Source of the DNA: an uncultured Verrucomicrobiae bacterium
Lineage (GTDB): Bacteria; Verrucomicrobiota; Verrucomicrobiia; Chthoniobacterales; UBA10450
Length of the DNA stretch: 64,000 nt
Direction of reading: 5' to 3'
Assembly (NCBI GenBank): GCA_963815455.1
Contig: CAWFGO010000003.1
Coordinates: 416,001-480,000, forward strand
The position numbers and the translations under genes were made by a program. The notes beneath the pieces were generated by a model that saw only the letters and a program-made list of their open reading frames with translations, made no database searches and was not told where the DNA came from. Below, one piece after another: positions 17,999 to 44,658 of this stretch (its first letter is position 1; each line of letters opens with the position of its first letter).

Positions 17999-18075
17999 GT
18001 CATCCCGAGCGGAGCGAGGGACCTCTCAAGCTAAGTCGGACATTCGAGAGATGTTTCGCTTCCGCTCAACATGAC
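17999..18075. repeat. GTCATCCCGAGCG-type inverted-repeat element between gyrB and gyrA
   Basis: GTCATCCCGAGCGGAGCGAGGGACCTCTC...GAGAGATGTTTCGCTTCCGCTCAACATGAC. Confidence 0.8.
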
Positions 18076-26607: not shown

Positions 26608-27594
26608 ATGAAATCGACTCAGGAAATCACGCACGAAGTGCAACAACTGGGCCAATGGATCCCGGCGCTACGCGAACAGGTCGGGCACGTAGTCATCGGA
26701 CAGAAGTATCTGGTCGATCGGCTCTTGCTTGGTTTGCTGGCTAATGGCCACATCCTGCTCGAAGGCGTTCCCGGATTGGCCAAGACCCTGGCCGTCAAAA
26801 CCATGGCGGGCTGTATTCAGACCGGCTTTCAGCGACTGCAATTCACCCCCGATCTTTTGCCGGCCGATTTGATCGGCACTCTCATCTACAATCCGCGTAC
26901 CGGCGAGTTCACGACCAAGATGGGCCCGATTTTTTCGAACCTGATCCTGGCCGATGAAATCAATCGCGCACCTGCCAAAGTACAAAGCGCGCTACTGGAA
27001 GCGATGCAGGAACGGCAAATCACGATCGGCGAAAAAACGTATCCCCTCCCCGATCCGTTCCTGGTTCTCGCTACCCAGAACCCCATCGAACAGGAAGGAA
27101 CCTACCAGCTGCCGGAAGCTCAACTCGACCGTTTCATGCTGAAGCTAAATGTCGGTTATCCTGGGAAGCCGGAAGAGCGTCGCATCCTCGACTTGATGGC
27201 CACGTCCGCGCCGGACTTGCGGGTCAACCCGGTGATCGAACCGAAACAGATCATCGCCGCCCGCGACATCGTAAACCAGATCTACATCGACGACCGCGTA
27301 AAGGATTACATTGTCGATGTTGTCTGGGCGACCCGTGAGCCGGCGTCGTTCAATTTGCAACTGGAAGGTCTGATTCGTTACGGCGCGTCGCCTCGGGCAA
27401 CTATTTATCTCGCGCTCGGCGCGCGGGCCAATGCATTCGTTAACGGCCGCGGCTACGTCACGCCGCAGGACGTGAAGAGCATCGGCCCGGACGTTTTGCG
27501 GCATCGAATCATCGTCAGCTACGAAGCGGAAGCCGAAGCGGTAACGAGCGAGACGATCATTGAGAGGATTTTCGCGGGATTGCCGGTGCCCTAG
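26608..27594 (+). CDS. moxR: MoxR-family AAA ATPase
   Basis: GVPGLAKT, QFTPDLLPAD, LADEINRAPAKVQSALLEAM, ATQNPIEQEGTY. Confidence 0.95.
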   Translation: MKSTQEITHEVQQLGQWIPALREQVGHVVIGQKYLVDRLLLGLLANGHILLEGVPGLAKTLAVKTMAGCIQTGFQRLQFTPDLLPADLIGTLIYNPRTGEFTTKMGPIFSNLILADEINRAPAKVQSALLEAMQERQITIGEKTYPLPDPFLVLATQNPIEQEGTYQLPEAQLDRFMLKLNVGYPGKPEERRILDLMATSAPDLRVNPVIEPKQIIAARDIVNQIYIDDRVKDYIVDVVWATREPASFNLQLEGLIRYGASPRATIYLALGARANAFVNGRGYVTPQDVKSIGPDVLRHRIIVSYEAEAEAVTSETIIERIFAGLPVP

Positions 27595-27595
27595 G

Positions 27596-28045
27596 GTCAT
27601 CCCGAGCGCTCGCCGCGCCGTAGCGCAGCGGAGGCGGGAAGTCGAGGGATCCCGTGGTGCAACCGAGAAGCTAGGAATGAAAGTCGCAAAATTACTTCGT
27701 TTATATATTAACTAATGGGGATCGCCATACCGTGCTCTACATTGGCGTTACCAACGATCTCGAACGCCGCGGCAGCGAACATTCATTAGAATTCGGGAGC
27801 GCATTTGCGAGGCAATACAACGCGCACAAGCTCATCTATTTCGAAGCTCATCCCGATCCGACGAGTGCAATTGCACGCGAGAAACAACTGAAAGGCTGGA
27901 GTCGCGTTAAGAAGGAGGCATTGATTTCACAGGCAAATCCGGCCTGGAAGGATCTGTTTGACGAGATGTACGCACTTCGGCCAATCGGAGGTTCCCGGTA
28001 ATGCTACGGGATCCCTCGACTTCGCTGCGCGCGGCTCGGGATGAC
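27596..28045 (+). mobile_element. Candidate 450-bp mobile element: GIY-YIG nuclease flanked by GTCATCCCGAGC-type palindromic inverted repeats
   Basis: Perfect inverted matches 27596-27607/28034-28045 (12 bp) and 27638-27655/28006-28023 (18 bp) enclose the nuclease; interrupts the moxR-DUF58 junction. Confidence 0.7.
27677..28001 (+). CDS. Small stand-alone GIY-YIG nuclease; one extra A just after the ATG
   Basis: (MKSQ)NYFVYILTNGDRHTVLYIGVTNDLERR...KLIYFE...AIAREKQLKGWSRVKKEALI...NPAWKDL. Confidence 0.88.
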
Positions 28046-28939
28046 GAGCAGGCAGAAACCACCGCCGGCATCCTGAAAAAGATCAGAACGCTGGAACTCA
28101 AGACCCGCGGCCTGGTCGAAACCGCTTTCGCAGGCGATTACCACAGCGTCTTCAAAGGACGCGGGATGAATTTTGAAGATGTGCGCGAATATCAGCCGGG
28201 GGACGAGATTCGCGCGATCGATTGGAACGTGACCGCGCGCCTCGGCACGGCCTTCGTGAAGCAATTCACCGAAGAACGCGAGCTGACCGTGATGCTGATT
28301 GTCGATGTGAGCGCTTCGGGAAATTTCGGCAGCACCACGCAATCGAAGCGCGAGCTTGCCGCGGAAGTGGCCTGCCTGCTCGCTTTCAGCGCGATCCGAA
28401 ACAACGACAAGGTCGGCCTGCTCTTGTTTACCGATCGGGTCGAGCTTTTCATTCCGCCGAAAAAAGGACGGTCGCACACGTTGCGGGTGATTCGCGAGAT
28501 CTTGTTCTTCACGCCGCAAGGCCGCGGGACCGAGCCGGCGCTGGCGCTCGATTATCTAAACAAGATCGTTACACGGCGCGCGGTCGTGTTTTTTATTTCC
28601 GATTTTCAGGCGCCCGATTTTTCAAAAGCGCTGGCGGTGAGCGCGCGACGCCACGATTTCATCGCGGTCCATATTCACGACGAGCGGGAAAAGGTGCTGC
28701 CGAATATTGGGATCATCACACTGGAAGACGCAGAGACCGGCGAACAAATCGAAATTAACACGGCCGATCGCGCGACCCGGGCGCGATTTGCCCAGGAGGC
28801 CGAAGATCAAGAGGCCGAGCTTGCCCACACACTTCGCCGAAACCGTATCGACTCGATCGCGCTGCGGACCGGACAGGATTACTTGCCCGCGCTGCGCACA
28901 TTTTTCAAACAGCGCGAGCACCGCCTGGCAATTCGCTAA
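28001..28939 (+). CDS. DUF58 (VWA-like) protein of the MoxR/Bat operon
   Basis: SVFKGRGMNFEDVREYQPGDEIRAIDWNVTAR, EERELTV, FFISDF. Confidence 0.92.
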   Translation: MLRDPSTSLRAARDDEQAETTAGILKKIRTLELKTRGLVETAFAGDYHSVFKGRGMNFEDVREYQPGDEIRAIDWNVTARLGTAFVKQFTEERELTVMLIVDVSASGNFGSTTQSKRELAAEVACLLAFSAIRNNDKVGLLLFTDRVELFIPPKKGRSHTLRVIREILFFTPQGRGTEPALALDYLNKIVTRRAVVFFISDFQAPDFSKALAVSARRHDFIAVHIHDEREKVLPNIGIITLEDAETGEQIEINTADRATRARFAQEAEDQEAELAHTLRRNRIDSIALRTGQDYLPALRTFFKQREHRLAIR

Positions 28940-30509: not shown

Positions 30510-30601
30510 GTCATTCCGAGCGAAGCGAAGCGAAGTCGAGGAATCCCGCGACCGAACCGAAGGACTATTCTACGGGATCCCTCGACTTCGCTCGGGATGA
30601 C
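30510..30601. repeat. GTCAT(T/C)CCGAGCG-type inverted-repeat element (non-autonomous)
   Basis: GTCATTCCGAGCGAAGCGAAGCGAAGTCGAGGAATCCCG...CGGGATCCCTCGACTTCGCTCGGGATGAC. Confidence 0.9.
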
Positions 30602-44564: not shown

Positions 44565-44658
44565 GTCATCCCGAGCGAAGCGCAGCGGAGTCGAGGGATC
44601 CCGTGGAAGGGTCTCAAGGTTTCGCAACGGGATCCCTACGACTTGCGCTCGGGATGAC
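44565..44658. repeat. GTCATCCCGAGCG-type inverted-repeat element (non-autonomous)
   Basis: CGTCATCCCGAGCGAAGCGCAGCGGAGTCGAGGGATCCCGT...ACGGGATCCCTACGACTTGCGCTCGGGATGAC. Confidence 0.9.

Follow-up and report, generated by a model that had tools for sequence, protein, structure and literature searches.

Among the described systems, the closest one is formed by the small cd10448 GIY-YIG proteins of Chenal et al. 2025 (PMC11893778), which are flanked by CGTC-headed hairpins. According to the accessible part of that article, four homologues bind single-stranded DNA and cut it just upstream of the hairpin, and a lowering of transformation by SsnA is the only role shown in vivo. A domesticated mobile element was proposed there and likened to RAYT/REP, with mobility as a hypothesis, and the SRM was present on both sides in only 42% of the homologues. 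CGTC-tagged repeats were treated earlier by Di Nocera et al. 2013 (PMC3733652), in the available parts of the text without a dedicated transposase and with the Neisseria repeat dRS3 as CGTC-1; a broad range of transposases was proposed for their mobilisation. The features of REPIN-RAYT systems used for comparison were taken from the available portion of Bertels and Rainey (10.1101/2021.07.10.451892).

The locus described here lies in a stretch of 64,000 nucleotides (the window) from a genome of 3.6 Mb in 7 contigs (G000). A sequence-only reading had singled it out as a candidate new mobile system based on a largely uncharacterised type of small GIY-YIG protein. Both points are superseded, since Chenal et al. 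2025 showed the binding and cutting of the flanking CGTC-type hairpin as single-stranded DNA, and the hairpins flanking ssn genes as well as the mobile-element idea are already contained in that work. The arrangement of a gene within hairpins being in print, the surprise is limited. Based on the comparisons below, we lean towards an old and mostly sedentary Ssn cassette, whose enzyme probably drives a slow spread or upkeep of gene-less doublets, as RAYT does for REPINs.

The cassette and its nuclease

The cassette is located at the moxR-DUF58 junction (Table 1), and the genes downstream follow in the order DUF58/VWA, then the VWA, BatA- and BatD-domain genes of the Bat operon. Between 28939 and 35381 of the window, four conserved genes of this operon show at least six single-base frame breaks compared to three relatives. 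The arm positions given by the sequence-only reading were reproduced, with an outer match of 12/12 (27596-27607 vs 28034-28045) and an inner one of 18/18 (27638-27655 vs 28006-28023), the latter extending to an inverted match of 42 nt at 76% when lengthened. The unit indeed starts 1 nt after the moxR stop, which ends at 27594 with the arm match running from 27596, and no target duplication was observed at the ends of the window's unit, as had been claimed. The proposed (C)GTC tag holds true for the right arm with CGTC, whereas the left tag reads GGTC. Likewise, the unit stands at the junction of the moxR-DUF58 pair, but does not simply split it, as the right arm sits within the DUF58 reading frame.

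Table 1. Coordinates of the cassette, its neighbouring genes and related repeats in the window.
Feature	Position	Strand
moxR AAA+ ATPase (AAA_3), upstream flank of the cassette	26608..27594	+
Left arm as a whole (monomer and tail)	27595..27664	+
Left arm, GGTC-tagged hairpin monomer with enlarged loop	27595-27654	+
Left-arm 10-nt tail, common to gene-less doublets	27655-27664	+
Ssn-family single-domain GIY-YIG nuclease gene (by sequence), 107 codons, extra base after ATG	27677..28001	+
Right arm, CGTC-tagged monomer and tail, tag outward	27997..28046	-
DUF58/VWA gene	28001..28939	+
Type II-tail gene-less doublet, similar to the arms close to the second Ssn gene of the genome	13535..13666
Type II monomer and degenerate partner arm	17999..18075
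Type I gene-less doublet, 24-nt spacer, between two VWA genes of the Bat operon	30510..30601
Type I gene-less doublet, 24-nt spacer	44565..44658

The right arm overlaps the nuclease stop, and its + strand is translated as the N-terminus of DUF58. Since the only in-frame ATG upstream of the conserved DUF58 core, at 28001, also overlaps the nuclease stop, the first ~15 DUF58 codons are provided by the right arm. The DUF58 frame is open into the right arm at 28/28 junction loci compared (some loci represented twice), with a start that is mostly an ATG or GTG overlapping the nuclease stop. One relative that has lost the nuclease gene still uses the right arm as DUF58 start.

Directly after the ATG of the nuclease gene (27677-27679), an additional base places the start out of frame. 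For this extra A, a read error had been considered beside a real inactivation. An in-frame ATG was present in each of the 54 other junction copies for which upstream sequence was available (21 + 33), so that the base is unique among 55 junction copies, and four conserved genes within 7 kb are also broken into two or three frames compared to intact orthologues. Since the extra base is restricted to this assembly and the neighbouring genes point to an indel-prone assembly, it likely represents an assembly error, and the nuclease copy is likely intact in the living cell.

The frame from 27681 to 28001 comprises 106 aa and matches the Pfam GIY-YIG domain at residues 4-77 with an E of 1e-14, in agreement with the GIY-YIG gene of about 107 codons read before. 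PF01541 is the only Pfam domain in the 107-codon product, which lies within the Ssn size limit of 150 aa. An unannotated 94-aa protein of N. gonorrhoeae, obtained by a search of a plasmid collection (32 records), was used as a stand-in for SsnA based on its length, the residues Y6, Y17 and E64 and its NTS flanks; 16 NTS matches with at most two mismatches were found within 2.66 kb of its gene. Compared to this stand-in, the window protein showed 39/87 identities (45%). With the stand-in as query, tblastn matched the locus with an E of 1.7e-18 over 87/94 residues (92% of the query), which is within the published rule for Ssn homologues (E < 1e-10, > 75% of the query). The catalytic residues Y6, Y17 and E64 of SsnA align to Y9, Y21 and E68 and are kept in 103, 104 and 105 of 105 homologues, respectively. 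A match to the SRM is no condition for the protein family, since only 42% of the published homologues match on both sides. Judged by its sequence, the gene is thus a member of the Ssn family of single-strand nucleases. With a median dN/dS of ~0.1 among the 22 junction genes, for which 46 of 231 pairs were unsaturated, it is under purifying selection.

The closest named homologues originate from Verrucomicrobiota, including Ca. Udaeobacter, and the host therefore probably belongs to this phylum. A search of the PDB by sequence returned no Ssn structure and 1zg2 (UPF0213) as the closest solved one (E 1.5e-6), a protein of the same fold family but of a distant clade, and a search of NCBIfam with the nuclease gave no match. 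A weakly similar small GIY-YIG gene on contig C1 of the same genome showed no such arms in its 160-nt flanks. The genome also contains a second Ssn gene of another clade (G000:C2:522226-522560), to which tblastn of the stand-in gave an E of 2.6e-13. This second gene is located in a type II repeat cluster, and its frame is likewise broken by one base close to the 3' end.

For the flanks of homologues elsewhere, a structural arm rule was applied, comprising a GTCWY head, a 4-bp complement downstream and a YCY tail; it replaced a relaxed SRM pattern that missed most arms. Bracketing by arms with their tags outward was determined for 18/22 junction loci of the family, 6/7 other family loci and 35/66 distant homologues, while control stretches 900-1800 nt away showed any match in 23/194 and matches on both sides in 0/194. 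At least one hairpin within 300 nt was present in 58/66 distant homologues with full flanks, a count from which 8 distant loci were left out for short flanks. The inverted arms around homologous genes, which the sequence-only reading had suggested to look for, are thus observed.

Taken together, the locus shares with the Ssn/NTS-SRM systems a single-domain GIY-YIG protein of ~100 aa with its catalytic residues, flanking (C/T)GTCAT-headed hairpins with a short tail, and genomes with many dispersed copies. The arms differ from those of these systems by a GA/AG stem mismatch, inserts in the loop that vary, and a tail of 10 nt. Instead of large clusters, they form doublets arranged tail to tail with a fixed spacer. 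Furthermore, the gene has a fixed place in the Bat operon, where one arm serves as coding sequence, and several Ssn clades that differ in arm subtype occur side by side in a single bacterial family.

History of the moxR-DUF58 junction

An Ssn-like match was found in 76/121 family genomes, and the best 22 were all located at the moxR-DUF58 junction. The junction was readable at 113/115 loci, of which 22 comprise the whole gene, 1 a partial gene, 5 relics, 9 gene-less doublets of another subtype and 15 genes for a four-helix bundle (23S_rRNA_IVP), with the relic and doublet classes assigned by eye; the remaining 61 showed none of these. All 5 relics keep arms, and two of them also gene scraps. 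An empty junction, the presence of which in relatives had been put forward as a check, was observed in a relative of the same genus. Since many genomes are incomplete, absence of the gene denotes here that it was not found in those searched. The 23S_rRNA_IVP genes, present in 15/113 and never together with the nuclease, mark the junction as a hot spot of small genes with flanking repeats. They are bracketed by short inverted GTGA-type repeats (L009, L012, L018 and 12 more junctions). In four genomes, an opposite-strand ORF of ~95 aa without Pfam match was observed at the junction (L192:927-1214; G122, G086, G138).

Extending the search to all 355 family genomes resulted in 61 matches at an E of 1e-30. 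Among the additionally found genomes, 35/37 were examined (two flagged as unpublished were excluded), of which 33 carried the gene at the junction, one showed a match of another clade and one (G169) an off-site copy. In total, 55 genomes contain the gene at one junction, and 3 off-site copies were found. G169 holds a complete off-site cassette with both arms between genes that we take, from their translations, to be gmk and coaBC. In G362, a second copy is located 7.5 kb downstream in the Bat operon and shows 74% nucleotide identity to the first one. A broken copy in G099 lies between Mur ligase and secretin genes and groups with the junction clade (SH-aLRT 94). Identities of 72-83% were determined between the off-site copies and the nearest relatives compared, and no near-identical dispersed gene copies were present among the compared copies. 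From an insertion sequence or MITE the locus differs in this respect as well as in the missing target duplication at the ends of the window's unit. Of the genomes flagged as unpublished, G003 belongs to the 22 carriers and G008 to the relics, while G015, G218 and G220 appear in tallies only; the conclusions are independent of them.

The host-locus tree was calculated from moxR and DUF58, the two genes of the locus itself, for 109 genomes, with 4 omitted as too short. On this tree, the carriers are scattered across the family and 25 state changes are needed. This patchy distribution could be explained by an active autonomous, IS-like element that recently jumped to the junction, and the three off-site copies, the empty junction in the same-genus relative and the rejection of the host topology for the nuclease tree (AU p 0.0009) point in the same direction. 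Nevertheless, such an element is very improbable and largely refuted. The gene occupies the same junction in 55 genomes, and the third codon positions of the 22 compared nuclease copies are close to saturation throughout, with a mean distance of 0.56 and a minimum of 0.31 compared to a mean of 0.51 for the host genes. Nuclease and host trees have 5/19 splits in common, while at most 3 were obtained in 2000 shuffles. Moreover, the deletion relics show loss, and the off-site copies are too dissimilar from their nearest relatives for a recent jump. The mobile unit suggested by the sequence-only reading is therefore not a recent insert but an old resident of this junction with only 3 off-site copies. 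The history of the locus is best read as an early insertion followed by many losses, some allelic exchange and rare moves. By these comparisons, the gene is old and mostly sedentary, partly follows the host phylogeny and is often lost, which resembles a RAYT rather than an active transposon.

Arm repeats and their pairing with the nuclease clade

By one pattern, 300 monomers were found in G000, the majority of which are paired with their tags outward within 75-150 bp. A stricter arm pattern gave 251 matches, compared to 0 for the reversed pattern. The monomers are 25-59 nt long with internal mismatches in the stem, a single one folds weakly (-5 kcal/mol), and the base preceding GTC is T in 191, C in 69, G in 26 and A in 14 of the 300. 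The sequence-only reading had listed four gene-less loci with the same arms in the window. This holds for the two type I doublets of Table 1, whereas the other two loci belong to another subtype.

Altogether, G000 contains 38 type I doublets as units of ~80-110 bp, with spacers of 23-26 nt that are all different. Since the halves of the spacers resemble the inner ends of the cassette, a doublet can be regarded as a cassette with the gene swapped for a few central bases. Among the 38 doublets no co-variation between the spacer halves was observed, and together with the diversity of the spacers this gives no sign of a recent burst.

The published SRM pattern showed 0 matches in the window and 20 in the genome, compared to 19-30 in 5 shuffles. 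The arms miss this pattern due to an A at both 'B' positions of the stem and to their longer loops. They are therefore an SRM-like variant and not SRM proper, and due to this deviation and the weak fold of the monomer, their recognition could differ from that of SsnA. No such repeats were found within 500-600 nt of any of the 16 Y1_Tnp/RAYT-type genes of the genome, and a RAYT/Y1 transposase was rejected as partner enzyme since no Y1_Tnp gene lies near the arms. A targeting of start codons by the arms fits single cases (G144, G362), but was rejected as a general rule, since the outward ATG of 298 arms in G000 opens a frame of 100 or more codons in 45 (15%), compared to 23% for random ATGAC sites. 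Besides its 16 Y1_Tnp/RAYT-type genes, G000 also contains abundant palindromic families with GTAG-like ends (16-mer, up to 38 copies); some matches are located within open frames of unusual length (900-1500 aa).

Across the 121 family genomes, all 22 junction carriers contain type I repeats, with counts of 18-215 (median 87), and the 6 relic or partial genomes showed 5-69. For the 93 genomes without gene or relic, the median was 0, with 58 genomes at 0 and 9 at 10 or more (G099 104, G081 62, G005 59 and six with 11-16). It has to be considered that the threshold of 18 copies was set after seeing the data and that up to 2 counts of a carrier stem from its own arms. Non-carriers are not generally poor in repeats: 14 of them have at least 80 repeats of the wider family, 13 of which have 0-2 type I copies, while the 14th is G099 with its off-site copy of the junction clade. 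In independent pairs on the host-locus tree, 11.2/12 were concordant and 0 opposed for type I (median p 0.001). The remaining repeats outside type I gave 5.2 vs 0.6 (median p 0.125). A separate count of the second subtype covered part of that subtype and was kept out of the statistics. The median density of wider-family repeats per Mb was 42 in the junction carriers (22), 15 in genomes with other Ssn genes only (54) and 5 where none was found (45), values for which kin are not independent. In 19/21 nearest-neighbour pairs, the total repeat density was higher in the carrier. Across the family, this nuclease clade and the type I arms match closely, and the sequence-only reading was right in that nuclease and repeats belong together in a layout resembling RAYT/REPIN. 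The type I hairpin is abundant almost only in gene-carrying genomes, and from this distribution the enzyme likely helps to spread or keep the repeats.

The main exception to the pairing is G005 (L251), which is 97% complete and contains 59 type I copies, an empty junction and, as far as found, only an Ssn gene of another clade. For G081, with its 62 type I copies, the junction was not found. The case of G005 would be in line with a reversed causation, in which slippage during replication, gene conversion or an unrelated transposase spreads the repeats, and an abundance of repeats leads to the retention of the nuclease as a means of clearing hairpins. The broad range of transposases proposed as mobilisers in the accessible text of Di Nocera et al. 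2013 (PMC3733652) would fit as well. However, a reversed causation leaves unexplained why the gene is located between arms at every locus, and genomes with 80-255 related repeats of other subtypes lack the junction clade. We therefore regard it as improbable, although it would accommodate that the nick of a GIY-YIG enzyme alone cannot integrate DNA.

Doublets present in one genome were absent from its congeners at several sites. The tsaD gene of G072 contains an in-frame insertion of a type I doublet (L215:450-545), which was also present in G089, and the site is empty in three congeners (2/5 filled). Side-by-side comparisons were made for 8 sites, and for 7 of these the doublet was missing in one or more relatives. 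In these 7 filled/empty comparisons, made at 70-85% identity where old duplications may be masked by divergence, no target duplication or exact cut site was readable.

Compared to CGTC-tagged REPs, as far as the available text of Di Nocera et al. 2013 describes them, the repeats share the CGTC/TGTC tag, the stem opening with AT, the short unpaired tail, the predominance of doublets and some intragenic copies. They differ from families 1-4 (8-9 bp stem, 4-5 nt loop, compared by text description only) in their stem mismatches and long loops. Furthermore, a nuclease clade co-occurs with one subtype here, compared to no dedicated transposase there. With REPIN-RAYT, based on the available portion of Bertels and Rainey, doublets of ~100 bp with conserved arms and variable spacer in many copies are shared, as are an old and diverse repeat population and an enzyme gene flanked by its own repeats, which appears to be mostly single-copy, sedentary and in part vertically inherited. 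The differences are a GIY-YIG hydrolase instead of an HUH tyrosine transposase, a CGTC instead of a GTAG tag, and a gene that moved few times with a tree only partly congruent to that of the host locus.

A possible mechanism and its meaning

The support for a repeat-spreading role of the nuclease is correlative, and the comparative data favour its participation in the spread or upkeep of the repeats. By analogy to SsnA, the nuclease would bind the monomer hairpin as single-stranded DNA and cut a few bases 5' of the tag, just outside the arm. Because the tags face outward, a single cut per strand would result, at the end of the element that is 5' on this strand. GIY-YIG domains make a hydrolytic nick with no covalent intermediate, and the same chemistry would be expected here. 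To our knowledge, they do not join strands, and a nick alone cannot integrate DNA. Since the nick is hydrolytic and no strand joining is known, any copying would need host repair or recombination for its completion, and the protein would act as an initiator rather than as a full transposase.

In its general form, this leads to the assumption that the dedicated propagators missing so far for CGTC-tagged REPs are the Ssn nucleases. Every clade would copy the arm subtype belonging to it in the form of REPIN-like doublets, and from time to time the complete cassette, via nicking of single-stranded DNA and host repair. We give this assumption an even chance.

An alternative that we consider rather unlikely is a domesticated host tool, which for example limits the recombination of incoming single-stranded DNA as in Neisseria, while the repeats are targets made otherwise and kept by selection as long as the enzyme is present. 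The role of SsnA in transformation in the accessible part of Chenal et al. 2025 would be in line with this, as would a conserved, single-copy gene under purifying selection with a stop/start overlap in an operon. The lower number of repeats in relic genomes compared to carriers also fits, although a decay after loss would give the same picture. Against this stand doublets that match the cassette ends minus the gene, the whole cassette at three other loci and doublets at new sites including the inside of tsaD, and no other candidate enzyme was associated with the arms in this genome. The host tool and the propagating nuclease are not mutually exclusive.

A literature search covering few subscription journals gave no published link between Ssn and repeat spread beyond the Ssn paper, and neither the clade-to-subtype match nor the repeat variant was found in print. 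New here is an arm subtype outside the published pattern, which forms gene-less doublets; the consensus figure of Di Nocera et al. 2013, as distinct from its text, still bears on the novelty of the arms. The published repeat pattern misses this widespread arm type.

Through the match of clade and subtype, the question of 2013 on the mover of CGTC-tagged palindromes and the mobility hypothesis of 2025, both as worded in the accessible parts of these articles, become concretely testable. The locus offers a pair of enzyme and repeat subtype with natural controls, namely repeat-rich non-carriers as well as relics and cassettes at other sites. A family that is of interest for biotechnology gains a new pair of enzyme and target. 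If the propagating nuclease is true, the Ssn cassette would represent a transposase-free counterpart of RAYT/REPIN.
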